DNA from: Cocleimonas sp.
GTDB lineage: Bacteria > Pseudomonadota > Gammaproteobacteria > Thiotrichales > Thiotrichaceae
DNA: 24,000 nucleotides
Direction: 5' to 3'
Assembly: GCA_036478745.1 (NCBI GenBank)
Contig: JAZGEM010000074.1
Coordinates: 1 to 24,000, forward strand
Shown: one piece after another, positions 1,159 to 21,114 of the stretch
Layout: the number at the start of each line of letters is the position of its first letter
How positions within the stretch are numbered: position 1 is the first letter of the stretch
Program-made: the position numbers and the translations under genes
Notes under the pieces: model-generated
Told to the model about the DNA's origin: nothing
Database searches by the model: none
What the model saw: the letters and a program-made list of their open reading frames with translations, nothing else

Positions 1159-1278
1159 TCACTTCTTCTTTCGAGGCTTCTCATAAGTCGCCCAAGCTAC
1201 AATAAAACCAAATACAATTAAAATTGCGGATCCTATTAATATAACCTTTGAGCTTGTTGCTACTGTTAGATATATCAT
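1159..1278 (-). CDS. 39-aa small hydrophobic peptide (MIYLTVATSSKVILIGSAILIVFGFIVAWATYEKPRKKK), paralogue of 1591-1719
   Basis: Not in the ORF track (<60 aa). ATG is preceded by an AGAGGA SD. It has one predicted TM helix and a basic tail. N- and C-termini are conserved with the second copy. Confidence 0.6.
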   Translation of the reverse strand: MIYLTVATSSKVILIGSAILIVFGFIVAWATYEKPRKKK

Positions 1279-1295
1279 TACTTGTCCTCTATTTA

Positions 1296-1508
1296 TTAAT
1301 CTGTTTCGTCAAATTTATATCTGGCAAATATAATCATTCCCACCATATGAAATCCTAAATAGATAAGCATAGCCATGTTCTTTGTTTCATCTTGCCAGTC
1401 ACTTGTATGAATTAAACTCATAAAAATTGCGTATACAGATATTTGAGTGACAAACCTTTTTAACATTCCTAATTTGTTAGATTTTTTGTTGTTTTTGATT
1501 ATAGACAT
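1296..1508 (-). CDS. 70-aa two-TM small membrane protein, function unknown
   Basis: ORF track. It sits between the two paralogous peptide genes on the same strand, with short gaps. Confidence 0.5.
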   Translation of the reverse strand: MSIIKNNKKSNKLGMLKRFVTQISVYAIFMSLIHTSDWQDETKNMAMLIYLGFHMVGMIIFARYKFDETD

Positions 1509-1590
1509 ATTGTATTCCCTTGATAAGGATAGCCATGGTTAACTTCAACCAAATCTCATAAAAACTTAAGACCAAGTTATGTGTTAAAAA

Positions 1591-1719
1591 TTATTTCTTT
1601 TTTGAAGGCTTTTCGTATGTAGCCCAGGCAACAACGGCACCTATAATCACAAAAACAGCAGCGAATACCAATACTGCTATTGATCCAGATGAAGTTGTTG
1701 TAACGGTTGTATACAACAT
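1591..1719 (-). CDS. 42-aa small hydrophobic peptide (MLYTTVTTTSSGSIAVLVFAAVFVIIGAVVAWATYEKPSKKK), paralogue of 1159-1278
   Basis: Not in the ORF track. It has a strong SD (AAGGAGG, 7 nt before ATG). It shares M(I/L)Y.TV.T.S at the N-terminus and VAWATYEKP.KKK at the C-terminus with the other copy. Confidence 0.6.
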   Translation of the reverse strand: MLYTTVTTTSSGSIAVLVFAAVFVIIGAVVAWATYEKPSKKK

Positions 1720-1860: not shown

Positions 1861-1925
1861 ATTATACCACAAACACTAAGATCTCCTTAGTATTTGTGTG
1901 AGGGGAAACCTTAGATTCTCTTAGA
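1861..1925 (-). promoter_or_regulatory. Promoter (TGgTATAAT extended -10, minus strand, 1861-1869) plus two operator-like elements, homologous to the 9138-9211 region
   Basis: actaag-atctc-cttagt (1875-1891) and cttagattctcttag (1911-1925) align with the reverse complement of 9138-9189 in the same order and orientation relative to the downstream gene. Confidence 0.5.
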
Positions 1926-1964
1926 CTCATGAATGCCGTTTAAATCAATACACTTGGGAAATCA

Positions 1965-2801
1965 ATGATACTAACAATTATTCTTTACTTACTAAAATTC
2001 ATAAGGTCTATTGTTCTCATGCAAAAGAAAATATTACAAGGACTAAAACATACTACTCCCGAAGCCGTAACTACAAACATCATTATTCATTCACAAAAGA
2101 AACCGCAATGGGTCACAGATGAAGTCGTCAGAATTAAAGCACTCATGCCTCATGCGAGTTGCCGCATTATTTCTTTAGTTTTTAACCAACACTTTGGCAA
2201 TAGAGAATCTGTAGGAAAAACTTTGTTAGTTACACCATTCGACAAAATCTGTATGAAATACAGATACTACGAAAGAAGATCAAAGCTCGCCCTGCTCACG
2301 CCATTCCTTTCAATAAAGTCTGGGAAATCGACTTAACTTTTATTCAGCAGCAACCCATTCTGGGTGTTGTTGAGCATCATTCCAGAAAAGCACTAACTTC
2401 TAGTACCTTTAAAACAAAAAAGCAGTATTGCTATTCTTAGAGCCTTACTAAATATTTTAGATCACACGCCTGCACCACAGTATATCCGCACTGATAACGA
2501 AATATGTTTCAACTCAAAGTTAATAAAATTTGGACTATGGTTTCTTGATATCAATCATCAGACAATTGATAAACACTGCCCTTGGCAAAATGGGAGGATT
2601 GAGCGATTCTTTGGCACGCTGAAATCAACACTTGCCAATCAGGCTAATATTAATAAGTCAGATTTTCCTTATCTAATGTACAGTTTTGAATTTTGGTACA
2701 ACAATATTCGACCACATCAAAACTTAGAAAATAAAACACCAGAATCAGTCTACCTAGCACGTATCAAAAAATGGGAAAAGAAATATCCACCAGATACTTG
2801 A
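1965..2801 (+). mobile_element. IS transposase pseudogene (rve/DDE integrase-core type; at least 2 frameshifts)
   Basis: Three frames must be joined: ...QKKPQWVTDEVVRIKALMPHASCRIISLVFNQHFGNRESVGKT / FVSYTIRQNLYEIQILRKKIKARPAHAIPFNKVWEIDLTF...HHSRKALT / ...YIRTDNEICFNS...CPWQNGRIERFFGTLK...YNNIRPHQNL. The D (WEIDLT), D (RTDNE), E (NGRIERF) triad is recognisable. IS ends were not identified. Confidence 0.75.
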
Positions 2802-3018: not shown

Positions 3019-3075
3019 CAATGGCTTACAAGCACGACTAACGGTTGATTTTGGCTTATGAGCGTGTGGTTGTCC
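3019..3075 (+). repeat. 57-bp direct repeat, copy 1 (downstream of the immunity gene)
   Basis: caatggcttacaagcacgactaacggttgattttggcttatgagcgtGtggttgtcc matches 5555-5611 at 56 of 57 positions. Confidence 0.85.
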
Positions 3076-3173
3076 CGTGTTTGCTATTTTTAATCAAAAA
3101 GTGCTTGAAATTAGGGAGGTGTCCATATATGTCCTTTGTTTCGGGTTGTTTTTAACAAGCATAAGTCATTGTT

Positions 3174-3566
3174 TTAATTATCAATCGAATCTGACCCCTT
3201 TGATTTTATAAGCTTGAACAGATTTATACCGTTTGTCTCTATTAAACTAACTCCAAGTTGTAAACAATTTCTATACTTAGATGGATCAATCTCATGCCCA
3301 TCAAAAATTTCATGTAGAGTAGATTTATCTATTTTTCCGAACATTAAGTCGATTTCTAGTTTCGTATACAATTCTTCTACTATACAAAAAGCCTCTTCTT
3401 TTTGTTTTTTATTTAGATCAGATACATCACCAAACAAATGATTAAATAACACAGCTAAACTACCCCATTCTTCTATCTCTTCTTCATTCAGTTCCGCATC
3501 AACTATCATCTGTTTAAACCCACCGTCAAAATAGAATCCTATTATTTTATCAATGTATTGAATCAT
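3174..3566 (-). CDS. Putative immunity protein for the RHS C-terminal toxin (130 aa, acidic)
   Basis: Its start codon overlaps the rhs stop codon by 1 nt (position 3566, ATGA). It is a small acidic protein directly after a polymorphic-toxin gene. No recognisable family. Confidence 0.6.
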   Translation of the reverse strand: MIQYIDKIIGFYFDGGFKQMIVDAELNEEEIEEWGSLAVLFNHLFGDVSDLNKKQKEEAFCIVEELYTKLEIDLMFGKIDKSTLHEIFDGHEIDPSKYRNCLQLGVSLIETNGINLFKLIKSKGSDSIDN

Positions 3567-5335
3567 TACTTAACCTCAGCTAAAAAACTCTTTCTGCCTT
3601 TTCTAACATACCTTGTTAAGCTTTCTGGGCCTTTTAGTTTGCAAAACTTATCAACTATTTTAGAAGTTCTTAATAGTGCTTTATATAACTGCTTTCTACC
3701 ATTCCTAGTCATCGTTTTTGATGACCAATCTTCTTTACTCGTCCAGTTACCTTTTCCATTTAACTCTGGTGTGTTTTTAAGTACAACATGCAATACAAAA
3801 TGAACCATTCTGTGTGTTTCTGCAGGAAGAAATAATAATGCTTGATTAGGATCACCACCTAAGTTTTTGGGAATTGTATGGTGTCCATGATTTCCATCTC
3901 CTGTATATTGTTTCTTAATATATGAAACACCTACAAAACATCCGATTTTTTTAGTTACTCCTCCCTTTCCAGATACAGTAAATCTGGTATATTGGCCTAC
4001 AGAATTTGTCCCCAGTCTTGCGCCTATATTTAATCCAGACATGAGGTTACTCATTGTAAAATACCCACTGGGATCTATACCATTGACAGGATTTGAGTCT
4101 GTATATATATACTTATTTAGAGTGATTGGGCTACATATCTTTCCCAGCCACTCATCCTGCTGAGTAAACCGCCCAACCCCTTGATCATAATACCTAGCTC
4201 TTAAGTAATATTGCCCTAAGTTTTGATCAAACTGCTCACCCGCAAACAGATAATCATTAACAGTAACACCCGTCTGATTCAGCACCTCACCAAAGGCTTC
4301 ATAATTGTATAAGTCTGTAAATGCACCTGTGCTGTCACTCAAAGCCCTCGTAGAACCCAGCCCATCATAATGATAAGTATTAGTCGTACCATTTCTAGTT
4401 TGACTAAGCAAATCATCACCATAGGTATAGCTAACCGTAGTAGCATTATTCGAGCGCTCTTCAATCACCTGAGCATAAGCCCGATTGCTGTCAACAATAT
4501 ACTGCGTGGTTTCTGATCCCGTGGTTTGGGCTTCTCTTATACCATCGGCATTGTATTGATAACTTGTGGTGCTTCCTGCATTACTGGTTTCTGTCAGTTG
4601 ATTCTTTGCATTGTAGCTATACGTTTTGCTATTGCCGTCCAGTGTTTCCGTCAGGGTACTGCCGTTATTGTCATAGGTGTAGGTTGTGCCACCTTGCTGG
4701 CTTAAACGGTCGTTATCATCATAAGTGTATTGGGTTTGTACGCCGTCTACGGTTTCATAGGTTCGGTTGCCGACCTTGTCGTAGGTGTATTCTGCATTGT
4801 AGTTTCCGTTTGTGGCATCGGTGATGGTTTCAGTCTTTAAACGATTCAGATTATCGTAGCTGTAATCCGTTACCCTGCCTGTTGCCTCGGTGATCTTGGT
4901 GCGTTTTCCTGTGGCATCTAGGCTGTAGGTATACGATGAGAGTGTTGTGCCTGCACTACTTTTATGTGTGAGTGTAGTCAATCTATTCAAGCTATCGTAA
5001 ACGTAGTTATCCGTATTGCCATTGGCATGAGTGACTTTGCTTCGATTGCCGACTGCATCATAGCTGTAGCTTGTTGTGCCTATTGCATCAGTGACGGTTG
5101 AGAGTCTGTTAAGACTATCGAAGCCATAGCCGACGATTTTAATCTCTGTGCCTTTGCTAGTTTTAAGCTGGGTTCGATTGCTTTGATTATCGTATTGGTA
5201 TTCGAGCGTTGTACCGTCGACTTGGGTTTCTTTTGTCAAACGGTTTTGGGTATCGAATGTGTAGGTGGCGGTTGATGCATGACTCGCTGAAACAGTCAGT
5301 AATATAAGAATGAGGTAATAGTGAATGCTTTGCAT
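3566..5335 (-). CDS. Short RHS/YD-repeat polymorphic toxin with an N-terminal signal-peptide-like segment and a C-terminal GHH/AHH-type HNH/EndoVII-like nuclease domain
   Basis: Many YD repeats (YxYDxxGNR / YDxLNRL). The terminal core motif is RARYYDQGVGRFTQQD...NKYIYTDSNPVNGIDPSGY (aa 379-425, the PxxxxDPxGL type). The variable C-terminal domain is 164 aa and contains GNHGHHTIPK (DNA 3878-3886 = GHH) and THRMVHFVLH. The N-terminus is MQSIHYYLILILLTVSASHA|ST. Confidence 0.85.
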   Translation of the reverse strand: MQSIHYYLILILLTVSASHASTATYTFDTQNRLTKETQVDGTTLEYQYDNQSNRTQLKTSKGTEIKIVGYGFDSLNRLSTVTDAIGTTSYSYDAVGNRSKVTHANGNTDNYVYDSLNRLTTLTHKSSAGTTLSSYTYSLDATGKRTKITEATGRVTDYSYDNLNRLKTETITDATNGNYNAEYTYDKVGNRTYETVDGVQTQYTYDDNDRLSQQGGTTYTYDNNGSTLTETLDGNSKTYSYNAKNQLTETSNAGSTTSYQYNADGIREAQTTGSETTQYIVDSNRAYAQVIEERSNNATTVSYTYGDDLLSQTRNGTTNTYHYDGLGSTRALSDSTGAFTDLYNYEAFGEVLNQTGVTVNDYLFAGEQFDQNLGQYYLRARYYDQGVGRFTQQDEWLGKICSPITLNKYIYTDSNPVNGIDPSGYFTMSNLMSGLNIGARLGTNSVGQYTRFTVSGKGGVTKKIGCFVGVSYIKKQYTGDGNHGHHTIPKNLGGDPNQALLFLPAETHRMVHFVLHVVLKNTPELNGKGNWTSKEDWSSKTMTRNGRKQLYKALLRTSKIVDKFCKLKGPESLTRYVRKGRKSFLAEVK

Positions 5336-5414: not shown

Positions 5415-5500
5415 GCTAAAAACTGGGGAGGGTGCCATATCACATTTAACTCAGTTTTAAGTACTATTTTATTCACATGGCACCCCCCTACTTTTTAGTA
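5415..5500. repeat. MITE-like unit: two inverted copies of the ATGGCACCC(C)n..TTTTTAG motif around a 38-bp spacer
   Basis: The reverse complement of 5415-5438 (atggcaccctccccagtttttagc) is similar to 5477-5500 (atggcacccccctactttttagta). The same motif recurs at 15343, 15440 and 21084. Confidence 0.6.
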
Positions 5501-5554: not shown

Positions 5555-5611
5555 CAATGGCTTACAAGCACGACTAACGGTTGATTTTGGCTTATGAGCG
5601 TTTGGTTGTCC
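5555..5611 (+). repeat. 57-bp direct repeat, copy 2 (upstream of rhs, 24 nt after the stop of the 229-aa ORF)
   Basis: See 3019-3075. Confidence 0.85.
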
Positions 5612-5634
5612 TTTGTTTTCCCTTGTTTTCCAAC

Positions 5635-6324
5635 CTACGTTAAATCAATAATCACAGTTTCATAAAAATTGTCTTTAGGTTGAAATTTTAAAGACTGGTC
5701 ATTAATAAAAACTAATTTTGCTGGTACATTTATAATATTATTATATTCATATGTCGAATAGTCACGAAAAAGAATTTCTCTTTCTGTTAGGTCTCCTTTT
5801 GTTCCTATTAAGACATATAAATGTTTTCCTAATGAATCAAAAACATATTTCAACCTTGCTGATATTTTTTTAGATCGACTCCATGTTTTTCTCGAAGATA
5901 TTTTTGTGTAAATAAAATCTAGTTTACGTATGTCCTCTAGGTGAGTATTAACAATACATCCATCCAGACCAAATTCTGCCGGTAGATCAGCAAACACTTT
6001 TTTTAAGATTTTATAAATAACCATATTCCGATCAGATATTTTTTTACATGAAACATATTTTTCAATCGAAAATCCCACGTTAACTATTGCTACATTTGAC
6101 ATAGAGTCATATTCATAAACAGGAATAGGGTGTATTTTTTTTGTTAAAAACTCTTTAGGCCATAAATGAATAACAACTTTCCCAAATTTTGAATAAACAT
6201 TTCTTTTGAAATTTATATTCAAAGCAAATAAAATACATCTTGTCTCTGCTGTGAGTTTTTGCTCATTTGAATGTCCATAATGTGTAGAAGGACTTATTTC
6301 TACCTGCTGAAGATACTTAGCCAT
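5635..6324 (-). CDS. Hypothetical protein, 229 aa, no recognisable motif
   Basis: Long ORF in an AT-rich context. It is tightly packed with the upstream ORFs on the same strand. Confidence 0.55.
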   Translation of the reverse strand: MAKYLQQVEISPSTHYGHSNEQKLTAETRCILFALNINFKRNVYSKFGKVVIHLWPKEFLTKKIHPIPVYEYDSMSNVAIVNVGFSIEKYVSCKKISDRNMVIYKILKKVFADLPAEFGLDGCIVNTHLEDIRKLDFIYTKISSRKTWSRSKKISARLKYVFDSLGKHLYVLIGTKGDLTEREILFRDYSTYEYNNIINVPAKLVFINDQSLKFQPKDNFYETVIIDLT

Positions 6325-6417: not shown

Positions 6418-7248
6418 TCAACTACAAGAGCTGCGTAACGTCCGGGTAAAGCTCATTGTAATTAATATTAAGGATTGCTCAGAAGAAACCGCCCAATCCC
6501 ATGCTGTTTGATTTTCTATTATGAGAGCTTTATAACTGTAGTCATTACCGTTCAACAAGGCAGATAACACAAACCCATATGCTTCTATAAATGAGTCTGC
6601 TTGTATTGTTACCTTGGATATTTTAATAAGGCCTTCGTGTAATTTTGTAGTTGCTTCAGTATTTCCTTCAAGGAAAAATGTGGTTGTAAGTTGGTGGGCT
6701 GTGTAGTTAGAAAATATTGACCATGCTTGATCAAGATCACTCATTCCTGTTACCCTTTTTCCAATGACGCCAGCAAACCAGCGATGAACAGCAGGACTGT
6801 CTTGTATCCAGTTGGCTAGAGATTCAGCATTATGTGCTCGAATATCTTTCCATAGTCCGTTATCAAGTTGTTCTTTAACCCAGTTGTCTTTTTTAGCCCA
6901 GTGTCTTGGGGAGATGAAGATATAAGTATCTTTATTTCTGTTTAATGGGGAGGCATCATTTGTTCGTTTCTCATAGTCGCTATTGGCTTTGCCTTTAACA
7001 CTTTTATCTGTACCAATTTCCCATCCTGACATTCCTTTTGGAATGTACTTGTTCCCATGCTCGCTTTTTACAATTCCATCCCAGCCTTCGTTGGAAACAG
7101 AGTCTCCAGAAGGAAAATTAACATCAGCTTTATTATCGCAAGTAAGTACCAGTCGCTTTATAAGCTCAGGCAGTAATATTTCTGCCTTCTTTTTATTTGT
7201 GGCTACCCAGTTTTTAATGTCGTTTGCTGTTATGTACCATCCTGTCAT
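6418..7248 (-). CDS. Hypothetical protein, 276 aa; Trp-rich N-terminal module of about 170 aa; possibly a truncated N-terminal part of a larger protein
   Basis: ORF track. Segments LPELIKRLV...FPSGDSVSNEGWDGIV...GMSGWEIGTDKSVKGKANSDYEKRT...YIFISPRHWAKKDNW look like a conserved globular domain. A PD-(D/E)xK-like D...E..K arrangement is conceivable but unproven. Confidence 0.55.
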   Translation of the reverse strand: MTGWYITANDIKNWVATNKKKAEILLPELIKRLVLTCDNKADVNFPSGDSVSNEGWDGIVKSEHGNKYIPKGMSGWEIGTDKSVKGKANSDYEKRTNDASPLNRNKDTYIFISPRHWAKKDNWVKEQLDNGLWKDIRAHNAESLANWIQDSPAVHRWFAGVIGKRVTGMSDLDQAWSIFSNYTAHQLTTTFFLEGNTEATTKLHEGLIKISKVTIQADSFIEAYGFVLSALLNGNDYSYKALIIENQTAWDWAVSSEQSLILITMSFTRTLRSSCS

Positions 7249-7509: not shown

Positions 7510-8118
7510 ATGTTACAAGCAACCACCATTGCAGATTCACTTTTTACTAAAACACAGCAAAAAGTTATGGGGTTATTATTTAGAAAGCCCGACACTTCAT
7601 TTTATTTAAATGAGATTGTAAGACTTGCTGATATGGGCAAAGGGACAATTAAGCGTGAGCTTGAAAAAATGACTCAGGCAGGATTGTTGACGGTTAAACG
7701 TATCGGCAACCAGACTCACTATCAGGCTAATCCAGCGTCTCCTGTTTATGATGAGCTAATTTCAATTTCTCGTAAAACATTTGGACTTGCAGATGTTATT
7801 CGTCAAGCTCTTCAGACTGATAGTTCTTTTTTAGCTGATGACTCTATTCAATATGCTTTTATTTATGGCTCTATTGCAAAAGGTGAAGATACGGCTCAAA
7901 GTGATATTGATTTAATGATTATTGGGGATGGTTTAGCTTATACAGATATGATGAATCTATTAATCCCAATTGAAAAAGAGTTACAACGCCCGATTAATCC
8001 AAGTATCTATACGCTTGAAGATTTTAAGAATAAACTGAATGAGAATAATAGCTTCATCACGCGAGTTTTAGAGCAAGAAAAAATCAATGTAATTGGAGAT
8101 ACCAATGCCATTAGATAA
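7510..8118 (+). CDS. Winged-HTH (ArsR/MarR-like) fused to a minimal nucleotidyltransferase (MNT) domain; antitoxin-like
   Basis: The N-terminus LNEIVRLADMGKGTIKRELEKMTQAGLL is wHTH-like. YGSIAKGEDTAQSDIDLMIIG is the GS...DxD NTase signature. Confidence 0.75.
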   Translation: MLQATTIADSLFTKTQQKVMGLLFRKPDTSFYLNEIVRLADMGKGTIKRELEKMTQAGLLTVKRIGNQTHYQANPASPVYDELISISRKTFGLADVIRQALQTDSSFLADDSIQYAFIYGSIAKGEDTAQSDIDLMIIGDGLAYTDMMNLLIPIEKELQRPINPSIYTLEDFKNKLNENNSFITRVLEQEKINVIGDTNAIR

Positions 8119-8524
8119 GCTGGAAAACCTTGTCAAAATTGGTCAGCTAAAACATGAGCTACCTGATCAAAATGAATTTGATGGTATGGTGGCATCTGCT
8201 GAAATTCGTTTAAATGATGCGAAGCTTGGTGGATTGTCTCAAGATGGTAAATTTACACTTGCCTATGGCGCTGCTCATGCTTTATCACTTGCTGCGATGC
8301 GCTGGCATGGTTATCGCTCTGAAAATCGTTATATGGTATTTCAATGTCTTGAACAGACATTGGGATTAGAAACTGTAAAATGGCGTGTACTAGATCAATG
8401 CCACAAGCGCAGAAATATTGCAGAGTATGAAGGTCATTTAGAGATTGATTCTCAGTTGTTGAATGAATTAATTGAAATCACAACAGAGCTTTTAGAGCTT
8501 GTTAAAGATTTAGGTGATCTATAG
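8105..8524 (+). CDS. HEPN-like helical protein partner of the MNT gene (non-canonical motif)
   Basis: The ATG at 8105 (or TTG at 8093) overlaps the MNT stop at 8118. ...FTLAYGAAHALSLAAMRWHGYR...HKRRNIAEYEGH resembles the RNxxxH region of HEPN toxins, but E occupies the usual H position. Confidence 0.55.
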   Translation: MPLDKLENLVKIGQLKHELPDQNEFDGMVASAEIRLNDAKLGGLSQDGKFTLAYGAAHALSLAAMRWHGYRSENRYMVFQCLEQTLGLETVKWRVLDQCHKRRNIAEYEGHLEIDSQLLNELIEITTELLELVKDLGDL

Positions 8525-8797: not shown

Positions 8798-9115
8798 TTA
8801 TCTCTCCTGAAGAACCTTAATAATCTTAGCTTGTATACTCTTATTTGTATTAAAAAATAATAAAACTAACTCAGCTAATTTATCATCATCGGCATAAAGA
8901 TATGTAACAGGAATGGAGAGTGCTTTTGCAAGGCGCTGCGCTGTTGCATAGTCAGGTACGTGCTTATCCCTCTCATATTGATTAATTCTTGGACTTGCTG
9001 AAAATTCATCAATCCCTGCAAGTATCCCTAATTGTTTTTGAGAAACCCCTTTTTCTATTCGAGCTGATCGAAGTCTTCTTCCAACGGGTGAATTTTCTGC
9101 CTTCTTTGAACTCAC
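8798..9115 (-). CDS. XRE-family HTH transcriptional regulator (105 aa, GTG start)
   Basis: GRRLRSARIEKGVSQKQLGILAGIDEFSASPRINQYERDKHVP is a classic XRE HTH. It is divergent from a promoter carrying two palindromes. Confidence 0.8.
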   Translation of the reverse strand: MSSKKAENSPVGRRLRSARIEKGVSQKQLGILAGIDEFSASPRINQYERDKHVPDYATAQRLAKALSIPVTYLYADDDKLAELVLLFFNTNKSIQAKIIKVLQER

Positions 9116-9137
9116 TTTAGCGCCTCTTCATACGAGG

Positions 9138-9211
9138 CTAAGAGAATCTTAGGTTTTTGTTTACTTGGATACTAAGGAATCCTTAGTATTGAGAGTGTAA
9201 TCTGCTATAAT
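9138..9211 (+). promoter_or_regulatory. Divergent control region: palindromes ctaagaGAAtcttag (9138-9152) and atactaaggAtccttagtat (9169-9189) plus extended -10 TGcTATAAT (9203-9211)
   Basis: Perfect 6-bp and 10-bp inverted arms read directly. Both share a CTAAG/CTTAG core. The -10 faces the + strand gene at 9273. Confidence 0.55.
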
Positions 9212-9272
9212 GAGGTCGAAACTGTGCAGAGCAGTGCTTTTGTAAGTCAATCGATCAACCAAGGAGGACAAT

Positions 9273-9589
9273 ATGAATCACACTAACGCAAACAAGTTCA
9301 AGAAAATATCGATAATGAATGGTTAGGCTCAAACCAAGTTGCCCTTGGTAAATCATCTAATCGTTTTGTTTCTGGATCATGTAAAGTCATTGGCTTTTTG
9401 TTTGTCACTGCCTTTGCACTTGCAATCGGACTTTTAAAGCTGTTCTTTGCCTTTGCGGGTAGTGCTTCTGAGGTTGCTGATCATGAACATCGATTAGGTG
9501 AAGAAGATCCAAATAGCAGTTTTGACCTAGATCAAACTGAAATGAATCCTGCAAATATACATTTCAAACCTAAGCAATTTACTGATTAA
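9273..9589 (+). CDS. Small single-pass membrane protein; apparent frameshift between the SD/ATG (9273) and the main frame (open from 9287; track ORF 9398-9589)
   Basis: AAGGAGG SD plus ATG at 9273 gives only 17 codons. The frame encoding ...NIDNEWLGSNQVALGKSSNRFVSGSCKVIGFLFVTAFALAIGLLKLFFAFAGS... has no ATG before the TM segment. Confidence 0.4.
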
Positions 9590-9617
9590 TAACCCTCAAA
9601 TAATATTGAGGGTTATT
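9588..9617. terminator. Bidirectional terminator hairpin between convergent genes
   Basis: aataaccctcaa-ataata-ttgagggttatt forms a perfect 12-bp stem. Confidence 0.6.
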
Positions 9618-9621
9618 AATA

Positions 9622-9813
9622 TTATTTAGCCATCTTTGGTTTCTTAACTCTACTTGCAGAACCTTGACCCGAAGATGTTGCACTTCCCGCGCCTGACGCG
9701 CCCTCTCCTGACATACCTCCTATAGCATTAGCACCTAAAATACCAATTGAAGCTAACATCGTAAACCACCACTTTGTAAACAGCAGATAGATAATTAAGG
9801 AAATAATGCCCAA
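9622..9813 (-). CDS. Small membrane protein with a Gly/Ser-rich tail (63 aa, TTG start); may be the 3' part of the decayed upstream gene
   Basis: ORF track. Non-ATG start, overlaps the upstream ORF by 19 nt. Confidence 0.35.
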   Translation of the reverse strand: MGIISLIIYLLFTKWWFTMLASIGILGANAIGGMSGEGASGAGSATSSGQGSASRVKKPKMAK

Positions 9814-10383
9814 GCGGCATGACCAATTGAAGTTACTCCTTCAATATAAGATTTATCACCCCATATATTTGCCAATAAAACTTGATCAATCCAAGCGGCA
9901 ATATGCCAAATTCCCGGCATCATTGATATACCAAAAAACAGTACAACCAACTGAACCACACGGTCTAATCGATAAAGATTTAATATTAAAATAATGGGAA
10001 GCAGCATAATGAGAACCAGCATGGCTACCCCTAACATAATGGGTAATATAAATTTAATAAGCTGCGTGGGAACCTCCAGAAAGAAGGTGCCTATATGGGC
10101 AAAAATAGCCGCCAGTTTGTTTTTAATCCATGTCAGGGGGTTTGATGATTCTGAAGAAGTAGAATCGGCTGATACGCTGGCTATTTCTCCAGGGCCTAGT
10201 TTTGAATGAAATAACCGATCGAGCTTGTCTGCACTGAATAAAGCCCCAATTAATTGTTGGCTCAGTTACAGAAGATTTATGTTGAGATATTGCACCCGCT
10301 GCTACCCCAATTTTCTTAGCGAGTTCTTTTTAAGATAGTTTACTTAATTTACGCGAGGCTTGAATTGCCGAATAAAGTAACAC
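9795..10383 (-). pseudogene. Decayed gene: XRE-type HTH N-terminus fused to a multi-TM region
   Basis: Minus-strand reading from the GTG at 10383 gives LLYSAIQASRKLSKLS*KELAKKIGVAAGAISQHKSSVTEP, with an in-frame TAA at 10330-10332. A frameshift is needed near 10262 to enter the frame ...SADKLDRVISFKLGPGEIAS...TWIKNKLAAIFAHIG...ILPIMLGVAMLVLIM..., which contains the 80-aa track ORF. Confidence 0.45.
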
Positions 10384-10539: not shown

Positions 10540-10575
10540 CATACGTCACTATCGGTAATTAGATAGTGACGTATG
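10540..10575. repeat. Perfect 14-bp inverted repeat (catacgtcactatc-N8-gatagtgacgtatg)
   Basis: Read directly. It lies in a non-coding stretch. Confidence 0.6.
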
Positions 10576-10594
10576 CAATTATCATTGCTACGTA

Positions 10595-10851: not shown

Positions 10852-10916
10852 ACTAAGAATACCTTAGCATACAGACAAAAAAACCAAGATTCTCCTAGCC
10901 TCATTTAATTGAGGCT
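10852..10916 (+). promoter_or_regulatory. Third, degraded copy of the dual-operator region, plus a 5'-UTR hairpin of the XRE pseudogene
   Basis: actaagaataccttagc (10852-10868) and ccaagattctcctagcc (10884-10900) align with the reverse complement of 9138-9189. The hairpin is agcctca-tttaat-tgaggct (10897-10916). Confidence 0.45.
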
Positions 10917-10921
10917 ATATA

Positions 10922-11233
10922 GTGAATATTAAGAAAGAAGCAATTTCACCTGTTGGAAAAAGGCTAAGATCTGAACGGACAGCTAAAGGAATATCCCAAA
11001 AACAATTGGCTTTTCTGGCAGGGATTGATGAGTTTTCTACAAGCCCAAGGCAATCAATACGAAAGGGACAAACACGTCCCTGATTTTGCTACAGCCCAGC
11101 GCCTAGCTAAAGCACTTTCTATTCCTGGACTTACCTTTATGTAGAAGATGATAAGTTAGCAGAATTTATATTAGTGTATTCTTCTGCTACAAAAGAGACC
11201 AGACAAACTATTATAGATAGTCTTAGTTTATAA
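10922..11233 (+). pseudogene. Frameshifted paralogue of the XRE regulator at 8798-9115
   Basis: Three frames must be joined: VNIKKEAISPVGKRLRSERTAKGISQKQLAFLAGIDEFSTSPR / NQYERDKHVPDFATAQRLAKALSIPGLTFM* / YLYVEDDKLAEFILVYSSATKETRQTIIDSLSL*. It is collinear with the intact protein across 2 frameshifts. Confidence 0.75.
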
Positions 11234-14694: not shown

Positions 14695-14798
14695 CAATCT
14701 TTTTCCTAAAAGTAGTATTCTTTTTCCTAAATATAGAGTTGCTTGAAGAATTTACTTAGTTAGAAAAACCATAAGCCGCTGATTTTAATGAAAATAAA

Positions 14799-14885
14799 TG
14801 GTGCCCAGGGCCGGAATCGAACCGGCACGGTGTTGCCACCGAGGGATTTTAAGTCCCTTGCGTCTACCAATTTCGCCACCTGGGC
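14799..14885 (-). tRNA. leuZ: tRNA-Leu (anticodon UAA), long variable arm, CCA encoded
   Basis: The reverse complement is GCCCAGGTGGCGAAATTGGTAGACGCAAGGGACTTAAAATCCCTCGGTGGCAACACCGTGCCGGTTCGATTCCGGCCCTGGGCACCA. The anticodon loop is CTTAAAA. Confidence 0.95.
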
Positions 14886-15342: not shown

Positions 15343-15372
15343 ATGGCACCCCCCCCTTTTTTAGACAATTGG
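15343..15372 (+). repeat. Dispersed motif ATGGCAC-C8-T6-AGACAATTGG
   Basis: Read directly. Family member; see 5415-5500, 15440-15470 and 21084-21114. Confidence 0.7.
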
Positions 15373-15439: not shown

Positions 15440-15470
15440 ATGGCACCCCCCCTGTTTTTACACAATTGAT
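15440..15470 (+). repeat. Dispersed motif ATGGCAC-C7-TGTTTTTACACAATTGAT
   Basis: Read directly. Same orientation as, and 97 bp from, the previous copy. Confidence 0.7.
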
Positions 15471-21083: not shown

Positions 21084-21114
21084 ATGGCACCCCCCCCTTT
21101 TTTACATATTTGAT
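21084..21114 (+). repeat. Dispersed motif ATGGCAC-C8-T6-ACATATTTGAT
   Basis: Read directly. It lies in the intergenic region upstream of bolA. Confidence 0.7.

Follow-up and report, generated by a model that had tools for sequence, protein, structure and literature searches.

What does a helix-turn-helix regulator govern when its paired operators occur in three places on a genomic island, and how did those three places come to stand beside a single intact gene? These questions are posed by a 24,000-nt stretch of DNA from Cocleimonas sp. (GenBank assembly GCA_036478745.1, contig JAZGEM010000074.1, positions 1 to 24,000 of the forward strand; the window, hereafter, is this whole stretch), where a gene for a 105-aa XRE-type regulator is divergent from a gene for a small membrane protein and the region between them holds two palindromes. 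A first, sequence-only reading saw here a paralogous family of three repressor-gated modules, each comprising an XRE gene and a membrane-peptide gene, with one surviving repressor acting in the manner of cI and Cro. The explanation that we favour, and which we consider probable, is an orphan controller-protein switch, in which a regulator of the C.Csp231I/C.EcoO109I class and a double C-box sit on a mobile island with no linkage to restriction-modification (R-M). Family membership, operator identity and conservation, and promoter geometry are established by the comparisons described below, and we infer the direction of regulation and control in trans. The gene in question is:

8798-9115, minus strand: regulator gene, 105 aa, GTG start, XRE helix-turn-helix (HTH), C.Csp231I/C.EcoO109I controller class

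On the grounds of its sequence, the regulator is a member of the C.Csp231I/C.EcoO109I controller class, a family that went unrecognised in the sequence-only reading. The protein matches HTH_19/HTH_3 in Pfam and, in a phmmer search of the PDB, it matches C.Csp231I (PDB 3lfp; E 1.6e-26), the controller (C) protein of the Citrobacter sp. RFL231 R-M system, with residues 13-97 aligning without gaps to residues 4-88 of 3lfp and with the homology taking in the C-terminal extension. The second-best structural relative is BswR of Pseudomonas aeruginosa (PDB 4o8b; E 4.4e-25), and the PADLOC model Control_protein matches at E 1.8e-26 over model positions 5-93 of 101. Fundamental to this assignment are the residues that read the DNA. 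In the complex of C.Csp231I with DNA, solved at 1.8 Å, the bases are contacted by Ser32, Gln37 and His43 (PMC4321490), to which S41, Q46 and H52 of the regulator correspond in the alignment, and all three are invariant in 32/32 regulator homologues. C.Csp231I recognises CTAAG-N5-CTTAG, with distal and proximal operators about 18 bp apart (PMC3115060), a site class catalogued as Sorokin motif 8, the C.EcoO109I class (PMC2632904, 2009), and its binding depends critically on how long the inter-operator spacer is, but not on the sequence of that spacer (PMC4321490). Given the homology to C.Csp231I and the known site of that protein, the dual palindrome picked out in the sequence-only reading is a textbook double C-box with a 19-bp spacer. 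The operators of the window fall into three modules, A, B and C, of which A holds the intact regulator gene:

9138-9152: module A inner (regulator-proximal) operator CTAAGAGAATCTTAG, exact CTAAG-N5-CTTAG
9153-9171: module A inter-operator spacer, 19 bp, with TTACTT at 9161-9166 where the family has TTGNNN
9169-9189, core 9172-9186: module A outer (cargo-proximal) operator ATACTAAGGAATCCTTAGTAT, a 21-bp perfect palindrome
1873-1893, core 1876-1890: module B outer operator CTAAGATCTCCTTAG, exact core, facing the peptide operon
1910-1924: module B inner operator CTTAGATTCTCTTAG, one mismatch, 34 bp from the outer operator
10853-10867: module C outer operator CTAAGAATACCTTAG, perfect core
10884-10898: module C inner operator CCAAGATTCTCCTAG, two mismatches

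Both palindromes that the sequence-only reading had described in module A, at 9138-9152 and 9169-9189, are present and have the CTAAG-N5-CTTAG form. It had also held that the same paired elements precede a small-peptide operon, in the same order and orientation relative to a -10 element; the order stands (1876-1890, then 1910-1924), as does the adjacent TGGTATAAT, but the distance to this -10 differs, being 6 nt as opposed to 16 nt in module A. The third, degraded copy that was said to lie before an XRE pseudogene at 10922-11233 was likewise recovered, with operators at 10853-10867 and 10884-10898, and its spacer of 16 bp is 3 bp short of the 19 bp of module A. With up to one mismatch allowed, CTAAG-N5-CTTAG has five sites in the window against 0.61 expected, and 0/100 shuffles reached five; the sites start at 1876, 1910, 9138, 9172 and 10853, all within the three modules, with none elsewhere in the window. 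A weight matrix built from the operators of the regulator family loci gives 35.0 bits for the outer and 32.7 bits for the inner operator of module A, the former being the family maximum and the latter at the top of the family range, followed by 23.0 and 21.3 bits for module B and 17.4 and 19.9 bits for module C (outer and inner, respectively), and the best score in the window outside the three modules is 11.1 bits. Chance palindromes are ruled out by the shuffles together with these scores above background. A repeat search pairs 1861-1928 with 9134-9201 (68 nt, inverted, 71%) and 8988-9126 with 10911-11049 (73%). In the window there are three operator sets and a single intact regulator gene, as had been proposed: the gene of module A is intact, module B has no XRE gene and module C has a pseudogene.

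How far does this arrangement extend beyond the window? The regulator is 100% identical to a protein annotated in a Cocleimonas sp. metagenome-assembled genome (MAG), and its family is represented in metagenomes (more than 514 loci), in 257 plasmid records, most of them of conjugative or mobilizable plasmids, and in only 2 of 2.9 million viral contigs. For comparison 84 homologous loci were fetched (with identifiers such as L003 and L006), of which 72 unique loci were aligned on the outer operator. CTAAG-N5-CTTAG lies upstream of the gene in most of the 84 loci, a GC-rich Pseudomonadota MAG included, and in 73 of them, this MAG among them, the operator pair stands there at exactly 34 bp start-to-start; a Dyella genome has two operators, but 27 bp apart. 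The inner operator keeps its position at -37 to -39 from the start codon, and the pair takes up 49 nt of intergenic regions that are about 70-130 nt in length. Where the operator varies, so does the protein. For instance, the six loci with CTCAG/CTGAG half-sites (L026, L030, L031, L047, L049 and L068) have, without exception, GIDPSSAS and L[IV]G where GIDEFSAS and LAG are usual, and in the IncC plasmid L086 (NZ_MZ836796.1) the sites are CTTAG-N5-CTAAG and the contact residue Gln46 is changed to His, with the 34-bp spacing kept in every one of these variant loci. Coming from few lineages and not being statistical, this operator-protein covariation is suggestive support for direct recognition. 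The 105-aa protein very likely binds the CTAAG-N5-CTTAG operators, as the sequence-only reading had supposed, a conclusion drawn for this particular protein from the homology to C.Csp231I, the conserved contacts and the operator pair in 73/84 loci.

The consequence of such binding depends upon where the promoters lie. On the strand that reads away from the regulator, TTGNNN occurs at offset -11 from the outer operator in 68% of the 72 unique loci and TANNNT, mostly as TAGTAT, at offset +12 in 82% of them; the two hexamers are 17 bp apart, and TAGTAT is the flank of the 21-bp palindrome. Since the hexamers flank the 15-bp operator core, the core lies between the -35 and the -10 of what is close to a consensus promoter, which is the classic arrangement for repression. 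The TTGNNN promoter also accounts for the CAAG that is conserved within the spacer, the sequence of which is irrelevant to the binding of C.Csp231I. In L003 the cargo starts so close to TAGTAT, its ATG being 20 nt further on, that a second promoter could not be accommodated. The promoter elements of the window on the cargo side are:

9184-9189, plus strand: family -10 TAGTAT of the module A divergent promoter, within the outer palindrome
9203-9211, plus strand: extended -10 TGCTATAAT, second candidate promoter of the membrane-protein gene, as read from the sequence, 16 nt after the operator
1861-1869, minus strand: extended -10 TGGTATAAT of the peptide operon, as read from the sequence, 6 nt beyond the outer operator

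The second of these is the TGcTATAAT element of the sequence-only reading, which is indeed present at 9203-9211. In module B the outer operator spans roughly -36 to -22 of the TGGTATAAT promoter, a geometry shared by L006 and L009, where TGTTATGAT follows 5 nt after the operator. On the regulator strand there is no good -35, and the best -10 candidate for the regulator promoter is TAAGAT, on the minus strand inside the inner operator; with TAAGAT as the -10, the centre of the outer operator would lie near -40, the distal activating position both in C.Csp231I and in the Xre protein of I-F3b Tn7-CRISPR-Cas elements. In C.Csp231I activation comes from the distal site and repression from the proximal site, with an SQE patch that contacts sigma-70 (PMC4824078). 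The Xre of the I-F3b elements, C.Csp231I-like and about 100 aa long, has a pair of motifs upstream of the xre gene, of which the proximal represses and the distal activates (Petassi et al., bioRxiv 10.1101/2020.07.02.184150), and it represses the tniQ-cas promoter in trans via a single motif, behaviour that was read as zygotic induction (bioRxiv 10.1101/2020.07.02.184150). By analogy with these two proteins, in both of which the proximal site represses, the inner operator is predicted to be the site of autorepression.

Between the inner operator and the regulator gene lies one further element:

9123-9137, minus strand: predicted 5'-leader hairpin CCUCGUAUGAAGAGG, pairing the regulator Shine-Dalgarno GAGG with an anti-Shine-Dalgarno that abuts the inner operator

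The GAGG upstream of the regulator GTG, enclosed as it is in a conserved hairpin, points to a putative leader on the regulator transcript. The minimum free energy of the hairpin is -4.5 kcal/mol. In most loci CCTC, TCTC or CCCC comes directly after the inner operator and pairs with a Shine-Dalgarno of GAGG or GGGG. Leader structure was assessed by per-sequence folding together with a permutation test; RNAalifold on a MAFFT alignment of the leaders returned no structure, and loop lengths vary. At least three of the four Shine-Dalgarno bases are paired in the minimum-energy fold at 41/51 homologous loci, and true 5' and 3' partners form longer stems than permuted ones, with the observed mean reached by 4/1000 permutations, which amounts to modest covariation. 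The hairpin may limit translation of the regulator.

The mechanism that we propose on this basis runs as follows. The 105-aa protein would bind as dimers to the two CTAAG-N5-CTTAG operators, 19 bp apart, and since the outer operator is placed inside the divergent core promoter its occupancy would turn the divergent small membrane-protein gene or genes off. The dimer at the outer operator, about 40 bp upstream of the predicted start of the regulator transcript, may by analogy stimulate the weak promoter of the regulator, and at higher levels of protein the inner operator, which overlaps that promoter, would bring about autorepression, with the leader hairpin probably keeping the regulator scarce by hiding its ribosome-binding site. 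The controlled genes would then fire on entry into a regulator-free cell, or upon loss of the regulator, and would be silent in an established host. As the half-sites are identical, the module A protein should also repress module B in trans; such control is plausible by analogy, the I-F3b Tn7-CRISPR elements providing a precedent.

A number of observations weigh against this scheme. Firstly, the operators of module B score below the family median (30.9 and 29.3 bits), and secondly, the SQE activation patch of C.Csp231I is S25-Q26-K27 (SQK) in the regulator, where K27 is invariant across the family, such that positive autoregulation may not apply. Thirdly, the family -35 is degenerate in the window, reading TTACTT (module A) and TCACAC (module B), for which reason the active promoters may instead be the TGnTATAAT elements; in module A the operator would then be centred near -39, a position from which the regulator could be activating and not repressing. 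Fourthly, a sigma-70 consensus scan calls no promoter in 9116-9272 and picks up neither the family hexamers nor the TGnTATAAT elements, TGCTATAAT being missed because it has no -35, and the promoter assignments consequently rest on family-wide positional conservation. Finally, the 105-aa membrane protein encoded opposite the regulator finds only itself among 1.84 billion representative proteins. This cargo is described by two features:

9273-9589, plus strand: divergent membrane-protein gene, 105 aa when intact, single-pass with an acidic tail, disrupted by a 1-nt deletion
9585-9620, plus strand: terminator-like hairpin after the membrane-protein gene, from a terminator scan

The regulator and membrane-protein genes are divergent and share a 157-nt intergenic region, and the sequence-only reading was correct that they are not a co-transcribed toxin-antitoxin pair; the adjacent, co-transcribed genes of type II systems are not what is found here. 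A Shine-Dalgarno AAGGAGG at 9261-9267 precedes the ATG at 9273. The sequence-only reading had placed the gene at 9273-9589, but in the window these 317 nt are not an open frame: a 17-codon open reading frame (ORF) stops at 9326, and the remaining 100 codons are read in a different frame. In L088, an assembly 99.99% identical to the window, TTT stands for TT at 9296 and an intact 105-aa ORF results, whilst the 1-nt deletion at 9296 is common to L089 and L090, so that three of the four assemblies carry a frameshifted cargo gene. Apart from this, L088 departs from the window only by an additional base that splits ligA, and as this base indicates that the assembly has indel errors it bears on the choice between TT and TTT at 9296; by our own estimate, an accidental insertion within the frame-restoring stretch of 37 nt is improbable. 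In this 3.16-Mb ENA assembly the ligA difference is at 2784-2786, against 16363 in the window, with ligA split into 416 + 268 aa there and an intact ORF of 685 aa in the window. When intact, the membrane protein has one hydrophobic segment, from residue 32, and no HTH family match.

The two other modules have fared differently, as their remaining features illustrate:

1159-1719, minus strand: small-peptide operon of module B, three ORFs for hydrophobic peptides
1591-1719, minus strand: 42-aa peptide, module B
1296-1508, minus strand: 70-aa peptide, module B
1159-1278, minus strand: 39-aa peptide, module B
1944-2798, plus strand: DDE transposase remnant, frameshifted (rve_3, E 1.2e-13; three-frame pieces)
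10922-11233, plus strand: second regulator pseudogene (three-frame translation, tblastn against the intact protein)

The 42- and 39-aa peptides of module B are paralogues, 50% identical, in which one hydrophobic helix is followed by AWATYEKPxKKK. They are also 50% identical to a 42-aa ORF in the regulator-divergent operon of L006 and L009, and the presence of this AWATYEKP ORF there ties the peptide family to the switch. No Pfam or PADLOC family matches the module B peptides, and a search of 5.8 billion proteins with the 42-aa peptide recovers no sequence but its own. The place expected for the module B regulator gene is occupied by the transposase remnant, and module B loses its homology to A and C some 12 nt beyond the inner operator. 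In module C the pseudogene contains two frameshifts, which throw the recognition helix out of frame, as well as stops, and there is no recognisable divergent membrane-peptide gene. With no XRE gene in B and no recognisable peptide gene in C, the description of three modules that each pair an XRE gene with a membrane-peptide gene cannot be upheld. Between modules A and C, at 9622-10037 on the minus strand, are two overlapping ORFs of 63 and 80 aa, hydrophobic and Gly/Ser-rich, the second with a weak TraG_N match; the idea that they represent a TraG remnant and the cargo of module C was dropped, as the Pfam match is only E 0.0018 and there is no plasmid match. The two ORFs may derive from a conjugation gene.

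As to where the copies came from, A and C share 73.7% nucleotide identity across their regulator regions, whereas each is 79-81% identical to modules in other metagenomes. Since A and C are each closer to modules elsewhere than to one another, the three copies are best read as what remains of related elements that arrived separately, not as the product of expansion in place, a history that the sequence comparisons favour over the paralogous family envisaged earlier.

What, then, is the switch connected to in other genomes? A divergent gene is almost always present in the homologous loci, starting 40-200 nt from the regulator start codon, and these genes are varied, including CsrA (four), TraT, lipoproteins, PAS histidine kinases, zinc-ribbon proteins and many unknowns. 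It is because the cargo across the family is so diverse that the switch is to be regarded as a generic portable controller, not a dedicated membrane-peptide gate. Small single-pass membrane proteins are the divergent cargo in the loci closest to the window (L003, L006-L010), and a hydrophobic segment or lipobox is found in only 22/58 divergent first ORFs, on account of which membrane cargo is a feature of this lineage and not of the regulator family; the notion that the family as a whole carries membrane proteins was dropped for the same reason. In some distant relatives (L027, L036, L040, L042, L058 and L061) the divergent gene is a CsrA/RsmA homologue, sometimes with a third copy of the operator. 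BswR, the solved relative of the regulator, acts on the Rsm system in Pseudomonas.

The alternative that survives best takes the sequence-only reading further: the membrane peptides would be toxic, such that loss of the regulator would kill or arrest the cell in post-segregational addiction or abortive infection, and regulator A would be kept under selection by operon B. What has decayed and what has not agrees with such a view, as regulator A and the operators and ORFs of module B are intact and cargo A is frameshifted in three of four assemblies. The peptides are short, with a single helix and a basic tail, like many small membrane toxins, and the 42- and 39-aa peptides, with one hydrophobic helix each, are short hydrophobic peptides of the kind seen in type I toxins; there is in addition a weak holin-family match (E 0.016). 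Control of toxic genes by C proteins with no R-M link was raised as a question by Sorokin et al. (PMC2632904), and RacR-YdaST provides an instance of a divergent repressor that is essential through what it represses. Against these points, no known toxin family was matched in Pfam, PADLOC or Rfam. Only three tRNAs reach the gathering threshold in an Rfam scan of the window, which covers described RNA families; no type I toxin RNA was among them, and there is no Pfam match. Moreover, the CsrA, TraT, lipoprotein and sensor kinase cargo found across the family is not toxic cargo, and the low share of divergent first ORFs with a hydrophobic segment or lipobox (22/58) argues in the same direction. 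We therefore judge dedicated toxin gating to be unlikely, if worth keeping in mind.

A second possibility is that the regulator is a genuine R-M controller and that its enzymes have gone unrecognised nearby, for example in the ORFs at 5635-6324 and 6418-7248. In kind, the C-box and its regulator cannot be told apart from those of Csp231I and EcoO109I, endonucleases are often without a family match, and neither of these two ORFs (229 and 276 aa) is matched in Pfam or PADLOC. However, no methyltransferase or nuclease family is found among the called genes and scanned ORFs of the island, the regulator gene is monocistronic, with about 270 nt without a gene following on its strand and hence no C-R operon, and 0/58 scanned neighbours of the homologues is an R-M enzyme, the nearest being one SNF2/ResIII helicase. 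An R-M controller proper is on these grounds highly improbable. A prophage-type immunity region, in which a cI-like repressor would hold holin-like lysis genes off, has in its favour operators common to divergent promoters and small membrane-protein cargo with a weak Phage_holin_3_6 match, but is given hardly any credence, as the island lacks a Cro-like gene, an endolysin and genes for phage structure or replication, and the family, with more than 514 metagenome loci and 257 plasmids, turns up in only 2 of the 2.9 million viral contigs.

The orphan controller switch can also be taken further than we are inclined to take it. In its boldest form it would be a widespread portable cassette of islands and plasmids, triggered in a burst on entry or by loss, in which a consensus promoter within the operator, as at 73 of the 84 loci, would drive any adjoining cargo, and whose cargo in the Cocleimonas lineage would be new small membrane toxins held by transcriptional repression only, with no protein or RNA antitoxin, and whose orphan operon B would enforce retention of a regulator gene 7 kb away. 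This is a speculation to which we attach a low probability.

The island that carries the switch is about 14 kb in length and is bounded by tRNA-Leu(taa) at 14799-14885 and by a 92% copy of its 3' part at 746-816, within the repeat pair 746-816 / 14783-14885, and it holds insertion sequence remnants and pseudogenes. A third partial copy of the tRNA-Leu repeat is present at 937-959, and past the distal repeat comes a truncated integrase ORF of 173 aa (118-639), an arrangement which suggests that islands have accumulated in tandem at tRNA-Leu. Beside the regulator gene is an overlapping pair of genes, 7510-8118 and 8093-8524, that match the PADLOC candidate defence system PDC-M05A/B (E 2.8e-81 and 1.9e-62), a nucleotidyltransferase with a HEPN-like partner. 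Elsewhere, 73-nt direct repeats (3019-3091 and 5555-5627, 90% identical) bracket 3174-5335, which encodes a 589-aa RHS-repeat protein and a downstream 130-aa ORF; the latter is possibly an immunity gene, and the bracketed unit resembles a mobile or swappable cassette. The non-coding segment 10390-10722 is 78-86% identical to stretches beside the integrase genes of the islands in L006 and L009 and includes a 36-nt inverted repeat (palindrome 10540-10577), and is a possible site at which islands of this family recombine or are transferred. Finally, a short repeat, ATGGCACCCCCC(C)..TTTTTTA, has four copies inside and outside the island (5477-5498, 15343-15364, 15440-15461 and 21084-21105).

The significance of the locus is threefold. 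(i) An XRE regulator that was otherwise unknown gains a precise identity, with a family, an operator, contact residues and an expected logic that are provided by the structures of C.Csp231I and the reporter work on it. (ii) The result bears on the question, posed in 2009, as to the role of controller homologues without a restriction system, and it suggests that mobile elements use a promoter with an embedded C-box as a general device to time or to silence their cargo. (iii) Module B, with its operators and its intact peptide genes and its own regulator lost, represents a natural experiment. Until it is clear what the peptides do, the practical weight of these findings is modest.

How does the switch compare with systems that are already understood? 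The likeness to lambda cI/Cro was overstated in the sequence-only reading, in that the first divergent ORF encodes a membrane protein with no HTH match or homologues; there is no Cro-like partner, and the lambda comparison holds only as far as it does for any C protein. RacR-YdaS/YdaT of the E. coli Rac prophage is similar in that a repressor is encoded divergently from the promoter, with operators in the shared intergenic region, and there the promoter is strong and its products are harmful on derepression. Both of these systems differ from the present one in having an unrelated repressor family, a prophage setting and a Cro-like first divergent gene, of which there is none here. BswR (PA2780, PDB 4o8b) is closer, as it carries SQK, has no R-M link and stands opposite a divergent hypothetical gene, but its reported site, at the rsmZ promoter, is another, GC-rich palindrome, its intergenic region is 407 bp and it is a chromosomal pleiotropic regulator.

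The I-F3b Tn7 Xre offers a parallel in use, being a C.Csp231I-like regulator co-opted by a mobile element, with a burst of expression on entering a naive host, as interpreted there and proposed here, and, at the level of sequence, a further operator at a second promoter, which here is the module B pair without a regulator gene. The systems differ in that tniQ-cas is controlled there and tiny membrane proteins here, in that the cargo promoter and the regulator gene share a double operator here, and in that the Tn7 gene sits between the tnsABC and tniQ-cas operons, whereas no Tns, TniQ or Cas families were found among the called genes of the 20-kb neighbourhood of the regulator. With C.Csp231I and C.EcoO109I the regulator has in common an HTH protein of about 100 aa with a C-terminal extension and three base-contacting residues, a pair of CTAAG-N5-CTTAG operators ahead of its own gene, with a spacer of 18 bp there and 19 bp here, and autoregulation through a distal and a proximal site, which is expected here by analogy. 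It departs from them in having no endonuclease or methyltransferase partner and a monocistronic gene, and in that the distal operator is enclosed by a divergent promoter which serves unrelated cargo. From C.Csp231I it differs further in that the mRNA there is reported to be leaderless (PMC4824078), where a Shine-Dalgarno leader with a hairpin is predicted here, and in having SQK for SQE. What is new is therefore the setting: a known controller class and its known operator, together in an orphan location with non-R-M cargo.

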